A stretch of 64,000 bases of DNA. Source: an uncultured Pseudomonadota bacterium (GTDB lineage: Bacteria; SAR324; JACQKK01). The stretch spans positions 1,909 through 65,908 of the forward strand of contig CAZOXD010000004.1 in NCBI GenBank assembly GCA_964583525.1. Direction: 5' to 3'. The notes beneath the pieces were generated by a model that was not told where the DNA came from, did not search any database, and saw only the letters and a program-made list of their open reading frames with translations. Numbering within the stretch: position 1 is the stretch's first letter; each line of letters begins with the position of its first letter. The translations under genes and the position numbers were made by a program. Positions 43,901 through 63,769 of the stretch are shown one piece after another.

Positions 43901-44904
43901 TCTACGGACGGGTGCCGGTGCTGATCGACGAGAGCCGGGGCGACGAGGGCAACCCTTGGGGCATCCGCTTCATGGCGATGTTCCACATGGCGAACGACAG
44001 CGGGCTATTCCGCACGGCGGCGCAACTGGGCGAACGGGGTGCGAGCCGAGAGGGGGCGAGCTGGGTGTTGGAGGATGGCACGGTCTGGGTGCCCCTGTAC
44101 GAGGCGAAGATGATTAGTTCTTACGACCATCGCGCTGGCACTTATGAGGGCCGAGGGGATGACCGTGGCTTTACGGCTTTGCCAACTCCTTCAATAGAGA
44201 AACACTGTGATCCTCATTATCTTGTGGAACCATTCTATTGGGTTGAATGCACACATATTGATTCAAAGCTTGCTGACAAGAAGTGGAGGAACGCCTGGAT
44301 GTTTGGGTGGAAAGATATTACGAACAACACTAATGAGCGCACAATCATTTCGGGCATCGTGCCGAAAGTGGGGGCAGGTCATACCTTGCCGCTTTGTTTC
44401 CCTTCACCTAAACATAAGCACAGCGTTCCGGCCTTCGTTGGAAATTGGAACAGTTTGGTTCTGGATTATGTGGCCAGACAAAATGTTGGTGGGACGCATC
44501 TCAGTTATATGTACCTCAATCAATTCCCCATCCTTTCTCCCTCCGCCTACACCGAGGCCGACCAGGCCTTCATCGCCCCCCGCGTGCTGGAGCTGACCTA
44601 CACGGCCCACGACCTGGACGACTTCGCCCGGGACATGGGTCATGAAGGCCCGCCCTTCCCCTGGGACGAGGAACGGCGGGCGTGGCTGCGGGCGGAACTG
44701 GACGCCTGCTACGCCCGGCTCTATGGGCTGACCCGGGACGAACTGCGCTACATCCTCGACCCGGCGGACATTTACGGGCCGGACTATCCGAGCGAGACCT
44801 TCCGGGTGCTGAAGAACCGGGAGATGAAGGAATACGGGGAATACCGCACGGCGCGGCTGGTGTTGCAGGCGTGGGACGAGCAGGAGGGGGGGAATAGGGC
44901 ATGA
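40921..44904 (+). CDS. drmMI: Large N6-adenine DNA methyltransferase (Eco57I/type IIG-like), DrmMI-like
   Basis: SAM motif 'KIVDPACGSGHFLL' and catalytic 'VLGNPPWERIK' (NPPW). It starts 6 nt after the SNF2 gene. Two AT-richer patches lie in the C-terminal third. Confidence 0.85.
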   Translation: MARNRTGHGFTALRIEGGIIPAEYLETVRQLAAPSQSNADYGIERTLNLRDEISRFWRIATERWAGFKERRDRGDLNAATITIEDWLNPLLHRVLEFEDIAQRRERVVGTRHFPIGHEAYGQAVPLVLVPHDCSLDKADPRFGEEGRRRAPHNLLQEYLNAEDAALWGIVSNGRQMRLARDNPSLTRPAYIEADFERMFEEQLYSDFAAFWLLFHASRLAPKDGNVASCVLETWRNASLETGERARENLRHGVTQALRDLGTGFLRHPANEALRQALQNGDLETEAYFQELLRLVYRLLFLFTGEERGLLFTPGSPEEARNIYREGYAVSRLREMALQRRTHDRHLDLWVGLRVTFGALAEGAEPLGLPALGGLFATEQCPHLDAADLTNTELLAAIRALAFFPSGKSLARVNFRDMGTEELGSVYESLLELQPRIEAGTWTFGFAGDDAEASGKGSARKLSGSYYTPPSLVNELIRSALVPVIERTVAEHPDDPIAALLNLKIVDPACGSGHFLLAAARRLAAEIARLEAGADTPEESRRQHALREVVQHCIFGVDLNPMAVELCRTALWIETVEPGRPLSFLDHHLQCGNSLIGATPALLKKGIPDEAFSAIEGDDKKVVREFKQKNREQREFGLMSLIPEDDEPWERLGNLADAMFRLDTGPEDTLEEVREKERRYAEMVLSTHYLNARFWADMWCAAFFWKKTREFSFPITQEVFKRVERNPHEVPHWMREEVQRLAIEHRYFHWHLAFPEVFRMPNEGEAADNEETGWRGGFDVVLGNPPWERIKIQEQEWFANRSESVTGASNAAVRRRAIAALESSDPALFEAFKDALRGAEAQSHFLRHSERFPLCGRGDINTYTVFAELKRGLKGPQGRAGMIVPTGIANDDTTKVFFGAITSGRELASLFSFENEEFIFPSVHHSYRFCLLTLCGSLSSEQSPEFAFFLRQATQIRRNERRFTLSPENIARINPNTRTCPVFRSQADAELTRKIYGRVPVLIDESRGDEGNPWGIRFMAMFHMANDSGLFRTAAQLGERGASREGASWVLEDGTVWVPLYEAKMISSYDHRAGTYEGRGDDRGFTALPTPSIEKHCDPHYLVEPFYWVECTHIDSKLADKKWRNAWMFGWKDITNNTNERTIISGIVPKVGAGHTLPLCFPSPKHKHSVPAFVGNWNSLVLDYVARQNVGGTHLSYMYLNQFPILSPSAYTEADQAFIAPRVLELTYTAHDLDDFARDMGHEGPPFPWDEERRAWLRAELDACYARLYGLTRDELRYILDPADIYGPDYPSETFRVLKNREMKEYGEYRTARLVLQAWDEQEGGNRA

Positions 44905-45731
44905 ATATTGGCCGAAGAACCCGATATTCCCTGTTTCAGCTTCTTCAAGTCCTCAGGGAGGACAAACTGGAAGCCATTCTTATGAAGTATGAGCTGCTCA
45001 GAGAATCGTTGATTGGACGATACGGCGAGAACAGTTTCCAGATGCGCGATTATCAACAGGCCTTTGACACCGCGTCTGTTGCAATTGTTGGAGAGATGAT
45101 CAATGAAATCGCAGCAACGCATGAGGCCCTGCGATCAACCTTCCAACCCAAGGATCGCTACGACAATTCATGGGAAGACCTGCAGCATGCATTTGAATTG
45201 AGGTGGCAAGATTTGGTGCGTTGTGCGGAATTGGATGGATATCGAATTCCGGTGGATGAAATTGGCCGGATCGGAAAAACCTTCGTGCCTATTGAGCCAG
45301 AAATTGAAGGACAGGTATCGGTTGAGGACGATCTAACGAGTAATCTACGTGCCAGTGGCCTTCCGAAATCGGATGAGATCGTACGTTTGATCGGGGCGTC
45401 GGGGGATCATTTTCGATCTGAGGAATACAACGCCTGTTTGAATGCAGCGCGAGTCGCGTTACAGTCACTGGCAACGGCAATCGCCGAGGTGCGCCGGGAA
45501 GATCACCCCGGGGAATTCGATGAAGATAGATGGGGCAGCATTATTGGGTACTTCAAAACTAGCGGCTTCATCACCCAGCGACAAGAAAGGGGGCTGGTGG
45601 GAGTATTCGGGTTTGTGAGCGACGGATCACACGTACCAGTCGGCTTTACCGAAGAGGAGTATGTCCGCCTCGGGAGGCACCTATTTCTTTCCATGGCTTA
45701 TTTCCTTGTGAGGATTTTCAGAGCCAGCTAG
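44901..45731 (+). CDS. Hypothetical 276-aa protein, translationally coupled to drmMI
   Basis: The ATG overlaps the drmMI stop (ATGA at 44901-44904). AT-richer composition. I recognise no motif. Confidence 0.55.
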   Translation: MNIGRRTRYSLFQLLQVLREDKLEAILMKYELLRESLIGRYGENSFQMRDYQQAFDTASVAIVGEMINEIAATHEALRSTFQPKDRYDNSWEDLQHAFELRWQDLVRCAELDGYRIPVDEIGRIGKTFVPIEPEIEGQVSVEDDLTSNLRASGLPKSDEIVRLIGASGDHFRSEEYNACLNAARVALQSLATAIAEVRREDHPGEFDEDRWGSIIGYFKTSGFITQRQERGLVGVFGFVSDGSHVPVGFTEEEYVRLGRHLFLSMAYFLVRIFRAS

Positions 45732-47752: not shown

Positions 47753-50700
47753 ATGAACGTCTTCGAGTTTCGCGACAGCATCATCAAGGACTACGAGCGC
47801 TTCACCCGGAGCTTCGCCAACATCAGGAGCGAGGACATCCGGGAGTACGTGAGCCAGCAGTACGACGAGGGGCGCTTCTGGCCTTCCCCTTACGTCCAGC
47901 TCAATCCCAACTTCGTGCAGGGAGGTTCCATCGACGAGTTGGTGGACTCGGGCACCCTTCACGCGGAGTGCAAGAGTATTTTCCGCCGCGATAAGGATCG
48001 GGTCGAAGGCGGAAAACTGATGCAGCTCCACAAGCATCAGGTGGATGCCATTCACGTGGCAAAACGGGAGGAAAGCTACGTTCTGACAACCGGCACCGGT
48101 TCAGGAAAGTCCCTGTCTTACTTCATTCCCATCGTGGATGACGTTCTTCGACGCAAGGCATCAGGGGAGGCGGACAACCGCATTTCGGCCATAATCGTCT
48201 ACCCCATGAATGCCCTATGCAACAGTCAGCTCAGCGAACTCCAGAAGTTTCTGGAGAAGGGTTACGAGAACAGGGGCGGCCCTCCGGTGACCTTCGCCCG
48301 TTACACCGGCCAGGAATCGCAGGAAGAACGCCTGAAGATCGCGGCGAATCCGCCGGACATCCTGCTCACCAACTACGTGATGCTGGAGTTGATCATCACC
48401 CGACAAAACGACACGGATAAAGCGGTGGTGCAGCGTGCCGAAGGACTGCGCTTCCTCGTGCTTGATGAACTCCACACCTACCGGGGCAGGCAGGGTGCCG
48501 ATGTCTCGATGCTCGTGCGTCGGGTGCGCAACCGCTTCAACGACAACCTGCTTTGCGTAGGCACCTCTGCGACCATGGCCAGCGAGGGCGGCTTGGCGGA
48601 TCGCAACCGCGTCGTAGCCGAATTCGCGACCAAGCTATTCGGCACGCAGGTGAAACCAGAGAACATCATCACGGAGTCTCTCGCTCGCATCACGCCGGAG
48701 TCCACGCCAACAGACGCGTCCTCGCTGGCGCAGGCTATTCGCGTTGGGATCGGGGGAGACCCCGCCTATGACATTCTAGTCCAGAGTCCCATCGCAGCGT
48801 GGATCGAAACGCGCCTCGGACTGGAGTGGAAAGAAGAACAATGGGTGCGGATCTCCGAATCTCTCAAGTTGGATGAGGCCATCGAGGGCTTGGCGGAGGA
48901 AAGCGGGGTGCCTGTAGAGCAATGCGGAGGGTTCCTGACGGCCTTCCTCCTTCGCTGCTTTCAGGTCAGGTCGGCTCATGGGCACACGCTATTCGCGTTC
49001 CGGCTGCACCAGTTCATCGCGGGAGCTGGCGATTGCTATGCGACGCTGGAAGCGCCGGGTAAACGGTTTATCACGGTTGAAGGCCAGGAATTTCAACCCG
49101 GGACGCTTGAACGGAAAGATGAATCCAAGCGGGGAGCCAAGCGTCTCTTCAACCTCGCCTTCTGCCGACAATGCGGTCAGGAGTACTTCCCAGTTTGGGC
49201 TTACTCTGTCGGAAAGCAGGTGGATCACTTCGATCCCCGCGAACTGGGGGAGCGCGCCCACGAGGAAAGCACCGATGTCCAATCCGGCTTTTTCCTGCCG
49301 GATGAAGAGAACATCTTCGATAGCGAGGATATCGAGGGAGGTGCCTACCCAGAAGACTGGATCGAACCCGGAAGCGGCCTTCTCAAGCTGAAACCGCACT
49401 TCCGCAAGTACAAGCCACAGCAGATCCAGGTTACGGCCCTTGGTTCGGTGGGTTCAGGGCTACAGGGATGGTACATCCCCGGATCCTTCCGCTTCTGCCT
49501 AAGGAGTGATTGCACGTCCGAAGGCGGCGGTACCCGACGTTCAGAACTGACTCCGCTTTCTTCCCTCTCGACCGAAGGGCGCAGTTCAGCAACGACGGTG
49601 CTAACGCTGTCAGCCCTTTCCTTTCTAATGGGGAGTTCTAGCGAGCTGAGCGCGGAAGCCAGGAAGATACTGGCCTTCACCGACAATCGCCAGGATGCGG
49701 CACTTCAGGCTGGGCACTTCAACGACTTTATTTACACCCTGCTTCTACGTTCAGCCCTCCTGGCAGCCATCCGCTCTGCACCTGACGGCATTCTGAAAGA
49801 AGACATTCTTACCCAGAGCGTCCAGGAACAACTTGGGCTGCACATCCTTGAATTCTCCAGCCAAGATGTTCGTGGCCCGGCTGCGAGGAACACGGAATCG
49901 ACCTTCCGTGATGTTCTCGGTTATCGCCTGTTCCACGACCTTCGTCGTGGCTGGCGAATCGCCAACCCTAACCTTGAGCAATTGAGGCTGCTAAACATTC
50001 ATTACGAGGGCTTGGATGAGTGCTGCAAGGATGAAGAAATGTGGGCTGAGGTTCCCCTCCTCGCAAGCGCAGATCCTTCCACCAGGGGGAAGATTGCGCA
50101 CTCTCTGCTGGATGAGATGAGGAAGGGGCTCTGCATCAAAACCCAGTACCTGGACTATCAGTTCCAAGAGCAAATCTGGACGCGGAGCTATTCATTGCTC
50201 AAAGAGCCCTGGGGAATCTGGGAAGGAGAAATCAAGCAGAGCGCAAACGTGATGATCCCTCGCCCGTCACGAAAACAACTCGGCAGAGGAACACACCAAT
50301 TCAACATCTTCAATATCTCATACCGCTCAGCCTTTGGGCGGAGACTCAAGCGGCGCTCCATTTGGGGTGATGAAAACTCCCACTACCCTGAGCGGTTCGA
50401 TGAGTCCGAGTTCAATCAGGTGGTGGATCACCTGCTAAACGCCCTGGCGACTTACGGATTGGTGGAACCGGTCGAGACCGATGGTGCCGAACAGGGTTAC
50501 CGTCTCATGGCCTCTGTTATCCTGTGGCAGGAAGGAAATCCCGAAGGCACCTCGCCCAACGAGTTCTTCCAAACCCTCTACGACAACCTCTCCGAAATGC
50601 TGAGTGCGGGAGATCGGCTCATGCACCGATTGCACGCTCATGAGCATACGGCACAAGTTGAACCTCAGGTTCGGGAACAGCGTGAAGGGGAATTCAGAAC

Positions 50701-52990
50701 CGGAGCATTGCCGGTACTGTTCTGCTCTCCCACCATGGAACTGGGAGTTGATATCAGTACCCTCAACACCGTCTACATGCGGAATGTCCCTCCCACGGCT
50801 GCCAATTATGCCCAACGTAGCGGGCGTGCAGGCAGGGCAGGGCAACCGGCCCTTGTGCTTACCTATTGCACCGCCAAGTCGCCACACGATCAATACTTCT
50901 TTCAGGCTCCCACCAGGATGGTGTCCGGCATCGTATCTGCGCCAAGCATCGACCTGGCAAATGAGGATCTCATCCGGAGCCACCTGCACGCCGTGTGGTT
51001 GGCTGAAACAGGTTGCCGTCTCCCGGACGGTGTGAGAGATGCACTCGACCTTGACCAAAAGGAAGAATTGCCGGTTCAGCAGGAACTGCAGGCGAATCTC
51101 ACCCCTATACCGCCAGCACAAAGAGCAACCCAAAGAGTGACGGCCATGTTGGCCCATCTCTCCGAGGAACTAACTCCTGAGATGGCTCCCTGGTATGGCG
51201 CAAATTGGGTTGAGGCTGTGATTTCTGGTGCCTACCTACAGTTTTCACTGTCATTCGAGCGGTGGCGTTCGATGTATCGGGCGGTACTCAAGCAGATGGA
51301 TGAGGCAAGGGCCATCCAACAAAACCATGCCGTCACTGAAAGGGAGCGGAAGGAAGCCGACCTGCGATATCAGGAAGCGCGAAGCCAATACGAAATCCTG
51401 ATCTCGAATCGCCCCGGAATGACTTCGGACTTCTACACCTACCGCTACCTTGCGAACCAAGGATTCTTGCCTGGTTACAATTTCCCCCGTCTTCCCTTGA
51501 TCGCCTATCTGCCAGGCCGCCGGGAGAAGAACCTTCGCGATACCTACCTCAGCCGTCCTCGCTTTCTTGGGTTGTCGGAGTTCGGCCCTCAATCCATCAT
51601 CTACCACGAGGGCGGAACCTACAGGGTCAAGCGGGCAATCTTGGGGAGCAGAGATGAGCAATCTGCGACTGCAACCGCAGAATTGCCTGTAATCAAGGCC
51701 CGACTTTGTCCAGCCTGCGGCTATGCACACTTCGATGGGGAGCGAGATTACGAGCGGTGCGTTATTTGTGATGAAATACTGAGTGATGGACGGTGGCTGG
51801 GTGATCTCTACCGCATTGATCAGGTCAGCACCAGAAGGGCGTTTCGAATTACTTCCGATGAAGAGGAGAGGCAACGGCTCGGCTACGAGATGATCACAAC
51901 ACTTCGTTACGCTCAGGAAAACGGCAGGGCAATGTACGTGCCGGTAGTCTATAGCGAGGCTGGGGAAAAGTTACTCGAAATCCGATATGGAGCCAGCGCT
52001 CGGTTGTGGCGGATCAACTTGGGATGGCGGAGAAGGAAGGACAAGAACATTCTCGGTTTCAATATCGACGTGATCAATGGTGAATGGGTGAAGGATGAGC
52101 ACGCTCCCCAGGAAATGGCCGAAGGGGATGAGCTGGCTCCAGGCAAGCAAGTCCAACGTATTACTCCCTTCGTCGAAGACACTAAGAACTGTTTGGTTGT
52201 CGTTCCCCTTATTGCCTTGGAGGAACATACCTCCATCACCTTCCAGTACGCGTTGAAGCGGGGGATCGAATCGGCCTTTCAATTGGAGGGGTCTGAGCTG
52301 GCTGTGGAGGCACTTCCCACTTCATCTACCAGGAACTGTATCTTGCTCTACGAAGCCTCTGAAGGTGGTGCGGGCGTATTGACACGATTAGCCCGTGATC
52401 CAGGCGCAATGAGGAAAGTTGCCATCCATGCCTTGGAGTTGTGTCACCACCAGTCAGTTTCGGGTTCCTGGGCGGGTGTTGATGACCTTAGAAACACTGA
52501 TGATGGCTGCGAGGCGGGTTGCTACCGATGCCTGTTGAGCTATTCAAATCAAATGGATCACAAGCAGATTGATCGACAGGATGAAGATATCGTCGATTTC
52601 TTATGTAGGTTGTCCCGCAGTGACTCTGAAGTCGGCGCGGCTGGTCGAACTAATGAAGAGTTGATCCGCGAGCTGGAAAACCTATCTACATCACCGCTGG
52701 AAAAGGAATGGCTTCGATATATCATCGACGAGGGACTTCGACTTCCGGACAAAGCCCAAACTCTGCTTGAGGATTTCAACACACGCGCAGACTTTTCCTA
52801 CACTGCGGTTCCCGCTGCAGTTTTTGTCGATGGGCCGCACCACGAAACCCCTCAAGCCCAGGAAAAAGACGAAGAGATAACCGGTCGCCTGGTCGACGCG
52901 GGGTTTACCGTTGTGCGCTTTCCAAGGCACAAGGAGCGATGGGGAGAAATCGTGAACGAGTATGGTTTTGTCTTCAGAAGTCTGTCATAA
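47753..52990 (+). CDS. 1745-aa fusion: DEAD/DEAH helicase + DUF1998 Zn-ribbon + C-terminal DUF559/Vsr-like endonuclease-fold domain (DrmA+DrmB-like; also resembles MrfA/DruE-type helicases)
   Basis: 'LTTGTGSGKSLSYFIP' (motif I), 'LVLDELHTYRGRQGADV' (motif II), 'CVGTSATMA' (motif III), 'YAQRSGRAGRAG' (motif VI). DUF1998 'CEAGCYRCLLSYSNQMDHKQIDR' lies at about 52507-52570. The tail 'AVFVDGPHHETPQAQEKDEEITGRLVDAGFTVVRFP' is like a DUF559-type nuclease. Confidence 0.85.
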   Translation: MNVFEFRDSIIKDYERFTRSFANIRSEDIREYVSQQYDEGRFWPSPYVQLNPNFVQGGSIDELVDSGTLHAECKSIFRRDKDRVEGGKLMQLHKHQVDAIHVAKREESYVLTTGTGSGKSLSYFIPIVDDVLRRKASGEADNRISAIIVYPMNALCNSQLSELQKFLEKGYENRGGPPVTFARYTGQESQEERLKIAANPPDILLTNYVMLELIITRQNDTDKAVVQRAEGLRFLVLDELHTYRGRQGADVSMLVRRVRNRFNDNLLCVGTSATMASEGGLADRNRVVAEFATKLFGTQVKPENIITESLARITPESTPTDASSLAQAIRVGIGGDPAYDILVQSPIAAWIETRLGLEWKEEQWVRISESLKLDEAIEGLAEESGVPVEQCGGFLTAFLLRCFQVRSAHGHTLFAFRLHQFIAGAGDCYATLEAPGKRFITVEGQEFQPGTLERKDESKRGAKRLFNLAFCRQCGQEYFPVWAYSVGKQVDHFDPRELGERAHEESTDVQSGFFLPDEENIFDSEDIEGGAYPEDWIEPGSGLLKLKPHFRKYKPQQIQVTALGSVGSGLQGWYIPGSFRFCLRSDCTSEGGGTRRSELTPLSSLSTEGRSSATTVLTLSALSFLMGSSSELSAEARKILAFTDNRQDAALQAGHFNDFIYTLLLRSALLAAIRSAPDGILKEDILTQSVQEQLGLHILEFSSQDVRGPAARNTESTFRDVLGYRLFHDLRRGWRIANPNLEQLRLLNIHYEGLDECCKDEEMWAEVPLLASADPSTRGKIAHSLLDEMRKGLCIKTQYLDYQFQEQIWTRSYSLLKEPWGIWEGEIKQSANVMIPRPSRKQLGRGTHQFNIFNISYRSAFGRRLKRRSIWGDENSHYPERFDESEFNQVVDHLLNALATYGLVEPVETDGAEQGYRLMASVILWQEGNPEGTSPNEFFQTLYDNLSEMLSAGDRLMHRLHAHEHTAQVEPQVREQREGEFRTGALPVLFCSPTMELGVDISTLNTVYMRNVPPTAANYAQRSGRAGRAGQPALVLTYCTAKSPHDQYFFQAPTRMVSGIVSAPSIDLANEDLIRSHLHAVWLAETGCRLPDGVRDALDLDQKEELPVQQELQANLTPIPPAQRATQRVTAMLAHLSEELTPEMAPWYGANWVEAVISGAYLQFSLSFERWRSMYRAVLKQMDEARAIQQNHAVTERERKEADLRYQEARSQYEILISNRPGMTSDFYTYRYLANQGFLPGYNFPRLPLIAYLPGRREKNLRDTYLSRPRFLGLSEFGPQSIIYHEGGTYRVKRAILGSRDEQSATATAELPVIKARLCPACGYAHFDGERDYERCVICDEILSDGRWLGDLYRIDQVSTRRAFRITSDEEERQRLGYEMITTLRYAQENGRAMYVPVVYSEAGEKLLEIRYGASARLWRINLGWRRRKDKNILGFNIDVINGEWVKDEHAPQEMAEGDELAPGKQVQRITPFVEDTKNCLVVVPLIALEEHTSITFQYALKRGIESAFQLEGSELAVEALPTSSTRNCILLYEASEGGAGVLTRLARDPGAMRKVAIHALELCHHQSVSGSWAGVDDLRNTDDGCEAGCYRCLLSYSNQMDHKQIDRQDEDIVDFLCRLSRSDSEVGAAGRTNEELIRELENLSTSPLEKEWLRYIIDEGLRLPDKAQTLLEDFNTRADFSYTAVPAAVFVDGPHHETPQAQEKDEEITGRLVDAGFTVVRFPRHKERWGEIVNEYGFVFRSLS

Positions 52991-53011: not shown

Positions 53012-53170
53012 GGTCTTATCGCACTCGGCTTGGTCGGCGCAAATGTGACTGTGACACTTGAAGTGGAGGCGGAGATACCGTCAGGAGCACCGGATCATGT
53101 CGTCCGTACAGTTACCGAAAACGCTCGGACGCTAAAGTTCAAAGAACATTCCGGGTTCGAGGAGGAGTAA
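53012..53170 (+). pseudogene. Orphan C-terminal tail (52 codons) of an unrelated large gene
   Basis: 'GANVTVTLEVEAEIPSGAPDHVVRTVTENARTLKFKEHSGFEEE*' has no N-terminal part (in-frame stop at 53009-53011). From memory, this '..VRTV.ENARTLKF...FEEE' tail ends DUF499-type defence ATPases (unverified). Its TAA overlaps the next ATG (TAATG). Confidence 0.4.
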
Positions 53171-54720
53171 TGGCCAAGACGAGCGCAACCCACCCGCTCC
53201 AAATTAATGGAGTGGTCATCGACCAAGGTCAAGGCGAAATTGGGTTGACCTTCTGTCCCGGCAAGATGCAGCCAGATGCAATGTCCGGCTCGTGGGACAG
53301 AGACTTGTCCACAGATATGGCGGTGATCTCAGGTTACGGCGCAAAAGCACTCGTCACTCTGATGGAAGAGCACGAGTTGATTGAGTTGGGTGTTCCTGCC
53401 GAAACCATCGAACAAGCGGCCAATGCACACGGCGTCGAGTGGTATCACCTTCCAATTCGAGATGTCAGCACGCCAGACAAATCGTTCGAATCTGCCTGGG
53501 GGTATGCCGGGATTCGGTTGCGTAAGCTGCTCGCGGGGGGAAATCGGATAGTGCTGCACTGCAAAGGGGGATTGGGGCGTACAGGAACTATCGCGGCGCG
53601 CTTGCTAGTCGAACTTGGCGAAGAGGCAAGTTCTGCAATCGCCCGTGTCCGCAAGACTCGCCCCGGTGCAATTGAAACAAGAGAACAGGAAGACTATGTC
53701 CGTCAATGCCCGGTGATAGAGAACTCTCTTCGATCACTTTCAACTTCAGAGCGTGCATGGGCGTGTGTGCTTGGTGGAGCTATCGGGGATGCTTTCGGTT
53801 ATGAGGTAGAGTTCAGTAGTTGGGCAGCAATTCAACAACGGTTCGGCGAAAAGGGCATCCAAGAGCCGGTCATGCAGGGTGGACGTTTGGTCGTCTCCGA
53901 CGACACCCAAATGACGCTGTTCACTTTAGAGGGGATCCTACGAGGTACGAGACGAGGTAGGGATTCTGAAGCCATTCTCGACTCGATCCGCGACGCATAT
54001 CTTGATTGGTACGGCACACAGCGAAGTCTGGATGGTGGTAGGCAACCCGTTGGTGAACTTGCGCGTATAAAGGAAATCCGTGTTAGCCGTGCGCCTGGCA
54101 ATACTTGTCTTTCGGCTTTGGGAGCCGGTGGGCACGGAAGCCCCGAAAATCATATCAATGATTCCAAGGGGTGTGGCGGAGTGATGCGGGTAGCCCCTAT
54201 TGGGTGGTTTGACCAATTCAGTGACAAAGAAGTGTTTGACGTAGGAGCGCGGGCAGCCGCCCTCACCCATGGTCATCCCACGGGGTACCTGGCCTCAGGA
54301 ATGATGAGCGCAATTATCCACTCGCTGATGAAGGGGAAAACCCTGAAGGATGCGGTAAAGGGGACTTTGACAATTCTGGAGGGATGGTCAGATCACAAGG
54401 AAACTCTGGTGGCTGTGACACAGGCAATGGAATTGGCTGAGGACGATACCATTTCCACACATGAGGCGGTAACGAAACTGGGAGAAGGATGGATTGCCGA
54501 AGAGGCTCTAGCAATCGGTCTGTACGCTGCTCTCAAGGGGAAGAATTTCCAGAACGTACTTGCCATTGGAGCGAATCACAGCGGGGATTCAGATAGTACA
54601 GCCTCAATTGCGGGTCAGCTTTGGGGGGCTTGGCAGGGGCTGAACGGTATTCCACAACGCTGGATTCAGTCACTGGATATATACCGACCGCTTACATCGC
54701 TGGTCGGCCAGGCGCGGTAA
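53170..54720 (+). CDS. Fusion of a Cys-based PTP/dual-specificity phosphatase-like domain and an ADP-ribosylglycohydrolase (ARH/DraG family) domain
   Basis: The N-terminal domain has '[19 protein letters not shown]' (HCx5R(S/T) P-loop). The C-terminal domain has '[15 protein letters not shown]', 'SDDTQMTLF' and '[16 protein letters not shown]', the ARH metal-binding motifs. Confidence 0.85.
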
Positions 54721-54722
54721 AG

Positions 54723-54947
54723 CTGATGGGTGACGATGCCCTACGCGCCATCGCCCAGGAACTGCTGACCACGGTGCGCAAGAACGCGACCATCGACTGG
54801 TCAGTCAAGGCCAACGTCCGGGCCAGGATGCGGGTCATGGTGAAGCGAATCCTGTGCAATCACGGTTAACCACCGGACATGCAGGAAAAGGCCACCCAGA
54901 CCGTCTTGGAGCAAGCAGAATTGATGGCTGAAGACTTGGCGGCGTGA
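54723..54947 (+). pseudogene. hsdR: Orphan 3' tail of a type I restriction hsdR gene (copy 1), with an in-frame TAA
   Basis: '[73 protein letters not shown]' matches the conserved HsdR C-terminal region and copy 2 at 61355-61579. The TAA at 54867-54869 replaces the Tyr (TAT) of copy 2. Confidence 0.7.
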
Positions 54948-54976
54948 ATAAATGGAGGGTGGTGCAAGGGGATAGG

Positions 54977-55336
54977 ATGGGTAAGACTGGCGTTATACCC
55001 GAACAGATTGGACGATTCAAGCTGCGGGACTGGCATGAATTCTACGACCGTGGGGATGACTACGAATGTGTGGTGATCGATCCACATGACGAACGGCACA
55101 GCCGATTGATTCCACGGTCATATGTTGACGACGCAAGGCGCGTCCTATCCGGAGGGGAATGGTCAGTGAACGAAGCCAGACAGGCTCTTTTGGAAACAGC
55201 GGTTCGGAAGGTCTGGAAGTTTAGAAAGGGGCACAAGTACCAATACTATGTGCAGGACATCTTATTGATCCTGGTATCATTGGGGGATGCAGTCCATCGG
55301 GAAAAAGGGCGGGCGTACTGGTATGAAGTCTTCTGA
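54977..55336 (+). CDS. Hypothetical 119-aa protein
   Basis: ORF with an 'aagggga' RBS before ATG 54977. An alternative GTG at 54944 overlaps the hsdR-tail stop (GTGA). No motif recognised. Confidence 0.4.
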   Translation: MGKTGVIPEQIGRFKLRDWHEFYDRGDDYECVVIDPHDERHSRLIPRSYVDDARRVLSGGEWSVNEARQALLETAVRKVWKFRKGHKYQYYVQDILLILVSLGDAVHREKGRAYWYEVF

Positions 55337-55430
55337 CGGTATCATCGAACCGATTTATGCCTGCTGGAAATCATCAATCAACGGCCCCGGAAGAATTTGG
55401 GGATAACGAAGAAGCCATAGGGGATACAGG

Positions 55431-56393
55431 ATGATAAAGCAGCAACTAGGGAATTTAAAACAGATCAATCTTCGTGAGGTCTGGGAAAATGAAGCATCCG
55501 ATTTCACCCCTTGGTTAGCTGATCAAATCCAAATTCTTGGCGAAGCCATTGGTATGGATTTGGATGTGACAGGTCAAGAAGAAGCGGTTGGGCCATTCAG
55601 TGCGGACATAGTCTGCGAAGACAATACAACAGGACAGAAAGTCGTGATCGAAAACCAATTGGGGAAAACGGATCACGATCATCTAGGAAAATCGCTAACC
55701 TATGCATCAGGATTGAAGGCCCATTGTGTTGTTTGGGTATCGGAACGGTTCACAGAAGAACACCGCGCAGCCCTGGATTGGCTGAACGATATAACGGGCG
55801 ACGACTTTCGATTTTTTGGAGTCGAAATTGAACTGTGGCAGATAGGTGAATCCCAACCAGCCCCTAAATTCAATTTGATCAGTAAGCCCAACGAATGGTC
55901 AAAGGCGATTCGCCAGGGACAAACGTCTGGAAAATTGACGGAAACCCAGCAGCTTCAGTTGCGATACTGGACATCCTTCAAAACATTCATGGAGGAACAA
56001 AATAGTCCATTGCGATGTCAAAAGGCAGGGGCCTATGGTTACATTCAAGTTTCGATAGGGAAAACTGGGTTTCACCTTGCAGGTGTAGTATCCAGTTGGA
56101 ACCTTGAAAGTGGTGTATTAGAAAAAGAAATCAGGGCAGAACTGATCCTTCAAGGTAAGAATGCAGTGGATCACTTCAACACATTAGGAACTTCAAAACC
56201 AGAAATTGAATCCGAATTAGGGGAACCGTTGACCTGGTATGACCCCGAACAAACCATGCAACGACGAATCTATCTGAAGAAGAACGTCGATTATGGTGAT
56301 GAATCCAGTTGGCCGGAACAACACGCTTGGATGAAGGAAAAATTGGAAAAAATGAATCATGTTTTTCGGGAACGGGTGGGGAAGTTGGATTAG
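55431..56393 (+). CDS. DUF4268-like protein with an N-terminal PD-(D/E)xK-like segment
   Basis: 'FSADIVCED....KVVIENQLGKTDHDHLGKSLTY' (nuclease-fold-like) and 'LQLRYWTSFKTFMEE' (DUF4268-type, from memory). This family is commonly embedded in R-M loci. Confidence 0.6.
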   Translation: MIKQQLGNLKQINLREVWENEASDFTPWLADQIQILGEAIGMDLDVTGQEEAVGPFSADIVCEDNTTGQKVVIENQLGKTDHDHLGKSLTYASGLKAHCVVWVSERFTEEHRAALDWLNDITGDDFRFFGVEIELWQIGESQPAPKFNLISKPNEWSKAIRQGQTSGKLTETQQLQLRYWTSFKTFMEEQNSPLRCQKAGAYGYIQVSIGKTGFHLAGVVSSWNLESGVLEKEIRAELILQGKNAVDHFNTLGTSKPEIESELGEPLTWYDPEQTMQRRIYLKKNVDYGDESSWPEQHAWMKEKLEKMNHVFRERVGKLD

Positions 56394-56546
56394 ATTACAG
56401 ACGATCAATACATCACCTTGCTAATCGTCCTGGCCGCCGACATCGTCGATCAACTGGAAGCGGCCCTGGAAGAATTTCGGGGGATCGAGGAGGCGTTGGA
56501 GGCGGATCAACCCGATTCAAACTGAACCTTTTGGTTCTTAGGCAGA

Positions 56547-62391: not shown

Positions 62392-62649
62392 GTGGACAAC
62401 CTGAAGCAGTTCCGCATCGATTCCGACCATGTCAGCGAAACGGATCAACAGTCCGTGGGCCAAGTTGTCCCCCAAGACACAAACGACAAACCGGTAAGTG
62501 TCCTGCTGGAACGGATCAGGGCTGAAAGGACGGCCCAGGGGAACGGGAAGGCGAAGCGGGGGCGGGGTAGGGGGAGGCCAAGGCGCAGGTCAAAGATCAC
62601 CATTCGAAACGAAGAAATGCAGCACAAAATGTGTAAGAGGAGAGAATGA
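62392..62649 (+). pseudogene. Orphan C-terminal tail resembling R-M specificity/MTase subunit ends (copy 2)
   Basis: 'VVPQDTNDKPVSVLLERIRAERTAQGNGKAKRGRGRGRPRR...*' is homologous to 61616-61709. Its stop lies 1 nt before the next ATG (62651). Confidence 0.4.
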
Positions 62650-62650
62650 T

Positions 62651-63133
62651 ATGGCACGTTGCACACGAATAAGGGCGCTCAATTGGACGATTGCCGCAAA
62701 GGTTTCTGGCCGCCTACTTGAATTCGGATTGATCGCCGCAGGGATTTGGATTGCATATGGGCAACTATCTGCAATCAATGATCAAATGGACAAGGCGGCG
62801 GCTACATCTCATGCTAGCTTTGAATTGTCCCTTCAAAAGATTGGATGGGAACTACAGGACGAACGTAATCGCATTATGAAGACAGATGTTGCCGCAATAA
62901 ATCTGCATCTAAATAAGGTAATTAGCTATTATTCTATGATGTACGATTTCCGGAAGCTGCATCAAATCAGAAAGGATGTATGGAAAACTATGCTCATTGA
63001 CATGAGGGAATTCTTTTCCCAAAAGTTGGTACAAGCGATATGGAAAAGGAAAAGTAAATACTACGGTGATGAGTTTCCAGTCTTTGTTACCATGTGTTTG
63101 ATGAAATCAGATAAAACAAAATGCAAATTGTAA
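62651..63133 (+). CDS. Hypothetical 160-aa single-TM protein
   Basis: ATG 62651 ('MARCTRIRALNW'). Hydrophobic helix 'LLEFGLIAAGIWIAYGQL'. Strongly AT-richer than its flanks. The track ORF from 62498 is an upstream read-through of the tail region. Confidence 0.45.
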   Translation: MARCTRIRALNWTIAAKVSGRLLEFGLIAAGIWIAYGQLSAINDQMDKAAATSHASFELSLQKIGWELQDERNRIMKTDVAAINLHLNKVISYYSMMYDFRKLHQIRKDVWKTMLIDMREFFSQKLVQAIWKRKSKYYGDEFPVFVTMCLMKSDKTKCKL

Positions 63134-63145
63134 TGAGGAATAAAA

Positions 63146-63769
63146 ATGAAAACGGCATCTATTATAAAAAATGTATGCATCTATCTATTCCCATTATTAT
63201 GCTTCTTTCTATTATCCGACCCGGCCGAAGCCAAATGGTACTGTCAGCCAGACGATACTACCGCTGGCTCTCAGTTGGAGAGGCTTAAAGAATACACCGG
63301 CCCTGGAAGCAAGGATTTCTTCGCTGCGCTTGAACTAATAGCCCGGTTGATTTTAGCATTGGAAGACGGGAAAATTGAAGAAGCAAAAAGATCCCAGAAA
63401 AGTGCTATTGAATATTTATCAAGAGCGTTGAATGGATATCTAAAAGCAAGTGACATCACATCGAGTCCTACGCTTGCGAGCCGGCTTGCGGCAGTTAACA
63501 TAAGGGAAATATCACGATTTTCGAGCGTTCCTGTGGGAGATCAGACCTTTAAACCACTTGAAAGATTAAATGCTGCGTTTATAACTCCGACTGTTATCAA
63601 GCGGACATTTATTGAAATCTGCGTGCGGCCTATCAGCGAATTGCATGATGCATTGAGACAGCTTATACCAGGCGTAGAGGATGGAACAACCAATCTACTA
63701 CGGCTGTGGAGCAATTCCATCACCTCGGGGCTGATAGGCTCCGGTTGGCTTCGTTTGAGTTTCCGCTAG
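63146..63769 (+). CDS. Hypothetical secreted protein (signal peptide)
   Basis: 'MKTASIIKNVCIYLFPLLCFFLLSDPAEA' is a signal-peptide-like leader. It lies 12 nt after the previous gene and is AT-rich. Confidence 0.5.
   Translation: MKTASIIKNVCIYLFPLLCFFLLSDPAEAKWYCQPDDTTAGSQLERLKEYTGPGSKDFFAALELIARLILALEDGKIEEAKRSQKSAIEYLSRALNGYLKASDITSSPTLASRLAAVNIREISRFSSVPVGDQTFKPLERLNAAFITPTVIKRTFIEICVRPISELHDALRQLIPGVEDGTTNLLRLWSNSITSGLIGSGWLRLSFR

Follow-up and report, generated by a model that had tools for sequence, protein, structure and literature searches.

A phosphatase-ADP-ribosylglycohydrolase fusion gene next to a defense helicase as a tentative eraser of foreign ADP-ribosylation

We analyzed a single gene in a 64,000-nucleotide stretch of DNA (hereafter, the window) from an uncultured bacterium of the SAR324 lineage (GenBank assembly GCA_964583525.1, contig CAZOXD010000004.1, positions 1,909 to 65,908). 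The gene (53170 to 54720, plus strand) encodes a 516-amino-acid (aa) protein in which a cysteine phosphatase domain of the protein tyrosine phosphatase (PTP) fold is joined to an ADP-ribosylglycohydrolase (ARH) domain, and it follows a long helicase gene in a defense island. Judged by its sequence, the gene is a minimal solo member of a widespread, computationally predicted family. We read its product as a constitutive, stand-alone eraser of foreign ADP-ribosylation, a role to which we give a chance just short of even. The eraser reading draws on the intact active sites, the rigid fusion, the conflict-type associations of the family, and the fact that no cognate writer was found. Particular to this locus are the solo state, the kept attachment to the helicase gene, and a selected mini-open reading frame (mini-ORF) derived from a DUF499 gene.

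Domains and active sites of the fusion protein

A preliminary description of this DNA, made from its letters, had recognized a single 516-aa ORF joining a Cys-phosphatase domain to a complete ARH/DraG-type domain, and the ORF list, the Pfam matches, and the motifs all agreed with it. The gene is one uninterrupted ORF with an ATG start (ORF list, Pfam, and AlphaFold2 [AF2]), and this start codon is the right one because the N terminus, KTSxxHPLxI, is kept in homologues. The ARH/DraG-fold domain (aa 198 to 497; 53761 to 54660, plus strand) matched PF03747, ADP_ribosyl_GH, over model positions 1 to 287 of 287 (E value = 2.6e-67). The dual-specificity/PTP-fold cysteine phosphatase domain with its CX5R signature (aa 46 to 177; 53305 to 53700, plus strand) scored 44.9 bits with PF22785 (Tc-R-P) and 40.9 bits with PF22784 (PTP-SAK, by its Pfam title the PTP "Swiss Army Knife" family), both above the gathering score of 27 that applies to each profile. 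CDKN3, Y_phosphatase, and DSPc were weaker Pfam matches to the same domain.

Next, we looked into the catalytic residues. Three motifs of 10, 17, and 12 residues were picked out in the protein, the first of them holding C131 to R137. The proposed catalytic residues of the phosphatase are the general acid D98, the nucleophile C131 (in an 11-letter motif that runs to residue 137), and Q173, with a P-loop that reads H130-C131-KGGLG-R137-T138. The domain thus has what is expected of Cys-based PTPs and dual-specificity phosphatases (DSPs), namely, an HCX5R(S/T) P-loop, a general-acid Asp about 30 to 35 residues upstream, and a Q that serves to hydrolyze the thiophosphate intermediate. The metal-site motifs of the ARH domain are GDAFG..E214, S243-D244-D245-T246, and D473-S-D475-S476-T477. 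The preliminary description had allowed that catalytic residues of either domain might prove missing on alignment; all of them were invariant among 22 homologues with 51 to 80% identity to the fusion protein (D98, H130, C131, G133, G134, G136, R137, and Q173 in the phosphatase domain; D207, E214, S243, D244, D245, T246, H367, H369, D473, D475, S476, and T477 in the hydrolase domain). The same alignment placed a TFCPGK motif within a conserved N-terminal extension on the phosphatase domain. By residue content, both domains look catalytically competent. An AF2 model built from the homologue alignment (mean predicted local distance difference test score [pLDDT], 93.1; predicted template modeling score [pTM], 0.93) indicates that the two domains would form a rigid body with a defined mutual orientation.

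We compared the protein with characterized enzymes of both folds. The best PDB sequence matches of the phosphatase domain were small archaeal PTPs and atypical DSPs (25xa, ShufPTP, SsoPTP, and DUSP23), and Foldseek matched the fusion protein with ARH3, Lmo0067, DraG, ARH1, and MJ1187. With DraG the fusion shares the ARH fold and the metal motifs, whose aligned counterparts in R. rubrum DraG are GDALGATVEF, TDDTEM, and GGDADTT. These motifs provide the ligands of the binuclear metal site, as is established from structures of DraG and ARH3. Unlike DraG, the fusion scored 80.9 bits against an equivalog cutoff of 337 (NCBIfam TIGR02662), has no DraT and no nif context, and carries an extra phosphatase domain. 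Homologues are often auto-named DraG by JGI. The ARH immunity proteins Tri1 and Lmo0067 (Tre1-Tri1; PDB 6dre, 8za7) are similar in fold, and like them the fusion could reverse foreign ADP-ribosylation; Lmo0067 was its best ARH sequence match in the PDB (E value = 7e-12). Unlike Tri1, it scored 59.4 bits against a cutoff of 490 (NF041672), has no recognized ADP-ribosyltransferase (ART) toxin gene beside it, and has the added phosphatase domain. Identification of the fusion as DraG, as Tri1, or as a system of the PADLOC database was rejected on score cutoffs and context.

The best structural match was human ARH3 (ADPRHL2; Foldseek E value = 1e-9, TM-score of about 0.7 on the target), which, unlike the fusion, is eukaryotic and lacks a phosphatase domain, and identity is only about 20%. 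ARH3 acts on Ser-linked ADP-ribose, poly-ADP-ribose, O-acetyl-ADP-ribose, and ADP-ribosylated nucleic acid ends, which illustrates the range possible for the fold. The phosphatase domain, in turn, shares with SsoPTP, Tk-PTP, DUSP23/VHZ, and 25xa an HCxGGxGRTG P-loop, an upstream general-acid Asp in (I/L)P(I/L)xD, and a downstream Q; those enzymes are stand-alone proteins of about 150 aa that have been assayed on phosphoproteins or para-nitrophenyl phosphate (pNPP), whereas the fusion's domain has the N-terminal extension and the joined ARH.

A widespread family and its genomic contexts

The preliminary description had called the combination of domains unusual, and this did not hold up. The architecture PF03747 plus PF22784/PF22785 was present in 120 of the 120 best homologues (50 to 59% identity, with one at 80%). 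A word-indexed search scored 8,000 candidates, 7,968 of them below an E value of 0.001, and phmmer, run exhaustively against 1.84 billion cluster representatives, returned 1,865 clusters at an E value of ≤1e-30; both domains were covered end to end in about 58 of the top 150 clusters (clusters at 50% identity, counted manually). The description had also stated that the combination was not known as a characterized enzyme. This stands for the PDB and the searchable literature, where we found no characterized enzyme, but the combination as such was already on record, both in a JGI label borne by many homologues ("ADP-ribosylglycohydrolase/protein-tyrosine phosphatase") and in a published prediction (Iyer et al. 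2022).

The fusion is old and widely distributed, and its two domains are sometimes separated or arranged in another order; carriers include Bryobacteraceae and plasmids of the Rhodobacterales. The ARH subfamily to which it belongs also occurs alone (about 340 aa) and as triple-ARH giants. On Roseomonas haemaphysalidis p546-4 (L058, 8013 to 9535), ARH and PTP are separate genes in reversed order with a 4-nucleotide (nt) overlap, flanked by a SRAP (SOS-response-associated peptidase) gene and a UDG-family gene. Because the two domains are found there as a split, overlapping gene pair, the coupling of ARH to PTP appears to be functional and not the accident of one fusion event. Thauera pTX1 (L060) has a lone PTP of the same family (52.6% identity), with a SRAP gene nearby. 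Two longer proteins were also seen: a 937-aa chain of PTP, ARH, and a C-terminal sirtuin of the CobB/Sir2-Af1 deacylase class (E value = 7e-65) at locus L063 (9947 to 12757) and a 1,887-aa SIR2-PTP-TPR-ARH protein (P0181). Both are candidate multi-erasers, combining deacylase, de-ADP-ribosylase, and phosphatase. None of the GenBank phages carried the full fusion (0 of 43 matching records reached 80% coverage), and it was found on only four IMG/VR contigs, one of them a region of a 220-kb contig; on these counts, an origin of the fusion in phage counter-defense was rejected.

The published prediction started from de-ADP-ribosylating domains to which no transferase is coupled (Iyer, Burroughs, Anantharaman, and Aravind 2022, Viruses 14:1977; PMC9503650, section 3.8). 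In the widespread "ARG-centric" systems described there, ARG is coupled to a phosphatase in more than 55% of neighborhoods, in the same polypeptide or in an adjacent gene, and the phosphatase is most often of the rhodanese-phosphatase superfamily (PMC9503650). Further parts are Nudix or WYL regulators, chaperones (vWA, SseB, and TY-Chap1 to -3), REases, helicases, and ARPP; an adjacent Nudix-HTH or WYL-HTH regulator accompanies about 42% of the systems and is not obligatory (PMC9503650). Phyletic patterns led the authors to argue that ARG domains act preferentially on macromolecular adducts; they proposed, as a purely computational prediction, that the systems counter ADP-ribosylation by viral enzymes (PMC9503650). 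Like these systems, the window gene has ARG and a CX5R phosphatase of the rhodanese-phosphatase superfamily in one polypeptide, lies in a conflict-type neighborhood, and showed no coupled sirtuin and, among the neighboring genes scanned, no ART; unlike them, it is solitary and appended to a DISARM/Druantia-like helicase gene behind the DUF499-derived mini-ORF. The assignment to the family is secure because the partners beside close relatives are ARG-centric hallmark genes.

Those partners came from a survey of the architecture and its neighbors that the preliminary description had proposed and that returned both the widespread fusion and the hallmark genes. It covered 26 independent full-fusion loci from assemblies, metagenomes, and plasmids, with ORFs from a simple purpose-made caller and five neighbors per side clustered. 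Most loci had mobile-element or defense neighbors. There was no universal partner among the 26 loci; recurrent partners were a DUF2779 nuclease (5 loci, usually directly upstream), WYL regulators (4 loci), and GmrSD (3 loci), followed by UvrD with PD-(D/E)xK, DrmD-like SNF2 helicases, and a PglW/PglX set resembling that of BREX-2. The gene order at locus L061 is DUF2779, ARPP-1 (PF20208, E value = 1.4e-103), TY-Chap3 (PF22552), and fusion, and the closest metagenomic relatives, 55 to 56% identical to the window protein, lie in such an operon. Plasmids of Leisingera and Fuscovulum have the order AAA ATPase, WYL, fusion, (HEPN), PD-(D/E)xK, and UvrD. The preliminary description had weighed a nitrogen-fixation context of the DraG kind; none of the 26 loci had nif genes or DraT. 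A quick maximum-likelihood tree grouped the window copy with its closest relative (from contig L145, described below) on a separate branch, within a large clade of poor resolution that spans all context types.

Two of the contexts are worth describing in their own right. Loci L005, L007, and L068 form one clade (SH-like approximate likelihood ratio test [SH-aLRT], 100) in which a GmrSD type IV restriction gene always lies just upstream, on an integrative and conjugative element (ICE) or beside CBASS, which suggests a lineage-specific pairing of GmrSD with PTP-ARH. At locus L066 (90 to 14740), the fusion and a 546-aa gene without a Pfam match lie on the opposite strand between a pair of PglW-like kinase and PglX-like methylase (DUF7008) genes and a DEAD helicase gene, so that the fusion is embedded in a locus like BREX type 2.

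Within the host phylum, the window copy is the sole one among 88 genomes, being absent from the 87 others, and the gene was also missing from all 40 genomes compared within its own family or order. A scan of genome contigs with the fusion protein as the query returned only two partial relatives. The host assembly measures 5.2 Mb and is 88% complete. The window copy is a horizontally acquired, accessory gene.

We also searched for writers and partners in the host. The preliminary description had seen no obvious ADP-ribosyltransferase in the window, and no ART domain was found in the flanking genes scanned (the window upstream of 37864 was not scanned). It had also proposed a search of the genome for DarT/ART-type partners: DarT and DraT were absent from the whole genome, ART families beyond these two not having been searched. 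The genome has three sirtuins, all on other contigs, and one match to the RES domain (the NAD+ phosphorylase toxin type; contig C2, 24765 to 25169), which contains an in-frame TAG and may be a pseudogene or recoded. Neighbor scans found no Nudix or WYL regulator flanking the window gene, and tblastn with two WYL proteins of homologous loci found no WYL in the genome. Likewise, tblastn with proteins of loci L061, L065, and L021 found no ARPP, TY-Chap3, or DUF2779; the PF20208 (ARPP-1) profile gave no genome match, and neither did the control profiles.

The eraser reading and its alternatives

On the present evidence, the protein is more likely an eraser or reset enzyme than an effector, two of the possibilities raised in the preliminary description. 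As an eraser, the protein would be a cytoplasmic, two-headed cassette cotranscribed with the helicase operon. Its ARH domain, with a binuclear Mg/Mn site, would cleave the ribose C1'' bond by which ADP-ribose is attached to host macromolecules, where the marks would have been placed by the transferase of an invader, e.g., phage enzymes of the Alt/Mod type or interbacterial ART toxins. The CX5R phosphatase (nucleophile C131, acid D98) would then take a phosphomonoester off either the ADP-ribose-derived product set free in this way or the modified target itself, and the two activities together would restore host proteins, plausibly including the neighboring defense proteins. If the prediction is true, the family would supply the first demonstrated case of host enzymes reversing ADP-ribosylation inflicted by viruses or rival bacteria, a branch of immunity for which experiments have yet to provide an example. 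For tests, the solo version of 516 aa is the simplest choice, being a single gene with two clear active sites, beside a cloneable defense operon and with no regulator or partner to reconstitute.

Several observations weigh against the eraser reading. None of the regulator, ARPP, chaperone, or nuclease genes that belong to the predicted ARG-centric system accompanies the window copy, and no PADLOC-DB 2.0 family matched the fusion protein at an E value of ≤0.001. The association with defense islands is a count over 26 loci without a background control, and 3 or 4 of these loci resemble ordinary chromosomal neighborhoods. The nearest solved relatives of the phosphatase domain are protein tyrosine phosphatases, which by themselves do not point to ADP-ribose products, and the CobB-type deacylase sirtuin of the L063 chain matches hydrolysis of the small molecule O-acyl-ADP-ribose no less well than removal of ADP-ribose from macromolecules. 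Finally, we found no experimental study of an ARH-phosphatase fusion in the searchable literature or the PDB.

The substrates might instead be small. The two domains could act in sequence on soluble NAD-derived nucleotides (O-acyl-ADP-ribose from sirtuins, ADP-ribose-1''-phosphate from RES or Tpt1, 2'-phospho-ADP-ribose, or immune signals of the cyclic ADP-ribose type) to detoxify them, recycle them, or end a signal. Close relatives are fused to a deacylase of the CobB/Sir2Af1 type, whose by-product is O-acyl-ADP-ribose, and the structural neighbor ARH3 hydrolyzes O-acetyl-ADP-ribose. A phosphatase is chemically sensible on ADP-ribose phosphates, ADP-ribose-1''-phosphate and phosphatases matter in phage-host NAD conflicts according to recent literature, and the host has its three sirtuins and a RES gene elsewhere in the genome. 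The RES gene, however, is interrupted by a stop and lies on another contig, TIR, CD-NTase, and RES are not consistently adjacent to the fusion, and the argument that ARG domains prefer macromolecular adducts (Iyer et al., PMC9503650) also points the other way; we consider a small-molecule role unlikely. We rate as distinctly unlikely an action on nucleic acids, in which the ARH would clear ADP-ribose (or a sugar adduct related to it) off the bases or phosphate ends of DNA or RNA and the end thus exposed would be dephosphorylated by the PTP, working with neighboring nucleases and helicases in repair of host DNA or unmasking of invader DNA. Recurrent neighbors (the DUF2779 nuclease, PD-(D/E)xK with UvrD, SNF2 helicases, and GmrSD), the SRAP and UDG-family genes around the Roseomonas pair, the SRAP gene near the Thauera PTP, and the helicase-nuclease gene that the window fusion follows would all suit it; RNA 5'-phosphatases are known among the Cys-phosphatases, and ARH3 is able to take ADP-ribose off nucleic acid ends. 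Nuclease-rich neighborhoods are, on the other hand, typical of any defense island and not specific, DarT is absent from the genome, and Pfam detected no DNA- or RNA-binding domain in the 516-aa protein.

The remaining alternatives turn on how the gene relates to its surroundings. As an accessory subunit of the neighboring DISARM/Druantia-like system, the fusion would regulate or reset the 1,745-aa helicase-nuclease, for example, by removing an inhibitory modification. The two genes lie 180 nt apart on the same strand with a conserved, coupled mini-ORF in the gap and no promoter- or terminator-like site, L145 keeps the block from the helicase end through the tail to the fusion (80% DNA identity) but has different sequence downstream of it, and at L066 a DEAD helicase and PglW/PglX flank the fusion. 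Against this, the pairing is seen in this lineage alone (at 24 other loci, defense neighbors are different or absent), DISARM and Druantia as defined contain no PTP-ARH component and the protein has no PADLOC match, and the DUF499 tail indicates that the fusion earlier followed a different system; such a role has at best a slim chance. We see just as little prospect for a housekeeping regulator of endogenous ADP-ribosylation and phosphorylation that is a mere passenger in the island. It would fit the homologues found among metabolic genes, such as trpA, accD, folC, and purF at L020 and also those at L003 and L008, but not the patchy distribution, which resembles horizontal gene transfer, with absence from the 87 other genomes of the phylum and from the 40 relatives, nor the predominance of mobile-element and defense loci, and no endogenous writer of the DraT or DarT type was found.

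A bolder form of the eraser reading can also be stated, though we regard it as a long shot. The solo PTP-ARH would be a "guardian," i.e., a broad-spectrum eraser of phage-imposed marks (ADP-ribose and perhaps phosphate) on neighboring immune proteins, amounting to a host anti-anti-defense, with the DUF499-derived mini-peptide as a functional adaptor, decoy, or regulator. Its envisaged clients would be the DISARM/Druantia-like helicase, PglW/PglX of BREX, and GmrSD.

The helicase gene, the cassette stack, and the mini-ORF

The gene upstream of the fusion (47753 to 52990, plus strand) encodes the 1,745-aa DEAD/Helicase_C/MZB(DUF1998) helicase (Pfam). Its closest PADLOC profile was DruE of Druantia (E value = 4e-99), and DrmA and BrxH were weaker matches; the label "DISARM-like helicase" given in the preliminary description is thus acceptable by way of DrmA, with DruE the closer profile. 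PADLOC also placed a DpdE/DrmD-like SNF2 helicase and a DrmMI-like methyltransferase farther upstream. The gene does sit in a defense island, as the preliminary description had it, and PADLOC matched its neighbors to DruE, DpdE/DrmD, DrmMI, a NucC-like family, and PDC-S11. Between the helicase and fusion genes, we found neither a sigma-70-like promoter nor an intrinsic-terminator-like site, and from the arrangement it is plausible that the two genes are cotranscribed; the helicase is the probable operon partner of the fusion in this lineage. Four ORFs of the island had no Pfam or PADLOC match (44901 to 45731, 276 aa; 54944 to 55336, 130 aa; 62498 to 63133, 211 aa; 63146 to 63769, 207 aa), and an unrecognized ADP-ribosyltransferase or partner could be among them.

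Downstream of the fusion gene lie a remnant of the C terminus of a type I hsdR gene, the 130-aa ORF, a PDC-S11/DUF4268 gene, and a gene for a 1,564-aa protein. The hsdR remnant (54621 to 54869, plus strand; PF11867, T1RH-like_C, model positions 255 to 305 of 329, E value = 2.5e-17) starts at the 3' end of the fusion gene and marks the start of a variable stack of cassettes. We compared this region with the 2.6-kb contig L145, which carries the closest relative of the fusion (P0002, 80% aa identity). The contig and the window are collinear over the final 200 helicase codons and on through nearly the entire fusion gene, with 80% DNA identity. To the right of the fusion gene, L145 (2326 to 2559) lacks the window block from 54712 to 56393 and resumes with sequence matching window positions 56443 to 56482. 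The extra block in the window, about 1.7 kb, comprises the hsdR tail, the 130-aa ORF, and the PDC-S11/DUF4268 gene, and the comparison supports the view that whole cassettes are inserted or deleted at gene ends in this island.

In the gap between the helicase and fusion genes, tblastn identified a 46-codon mini-ORF (53030 to 53170, plus strand; 644 to 784 in L145) that corresponds to the extreme C terminus of a Swt1-HEPN/DUF499 ATPase gene. It is 74% identical to the end of a DUF499/Swt1 protein on a Burkholderia plasmid (tblastn), and its source proteins are the Swt1-HEPN/DUF499 ATPases of DUF1156-methylase systems. Its stop codon overlaps the ATG of the fusion gene (TAATG in the window and TGATG in L145), and TTG or GTG start candidates are common to both sequences. 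Over its last 32 codons, the window and L145 differ at 17 nucleotides, 16 of them at third positions, with 2 nonsynonymous differences; amino acid identity over these codons is 93.8%, compared with 79.8% for the fusion and 87.4% for the helicase end. The mini-ORF is, as far as this substitution pattern tells, under strong purifying selection and not dead, and it looks like a translated mini-protein rather than debris.

Because a DUF499-derived tail precedes it, the fusion gene would formerly have followed a DUF499 gene. The body of that gene appears to have been lost before the window and L145 split, with the tail since kept as a translated peptide coupled to the fusion. Read-through from the helicase into the tail peptide was rejected: the two share a reading frame in the window, but their frames differ in L145. 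We likewise discarded the idea that the DUF499 tail generally accompanies the fusion, since it lies beside the fusion only in the window and in L145. The locus illustrates how single-gene cassettes, each with the 3' end of a former neighbor, pile up behind defense operons and how at least one such "orphan tail" appears to be still under selection as a peptide.

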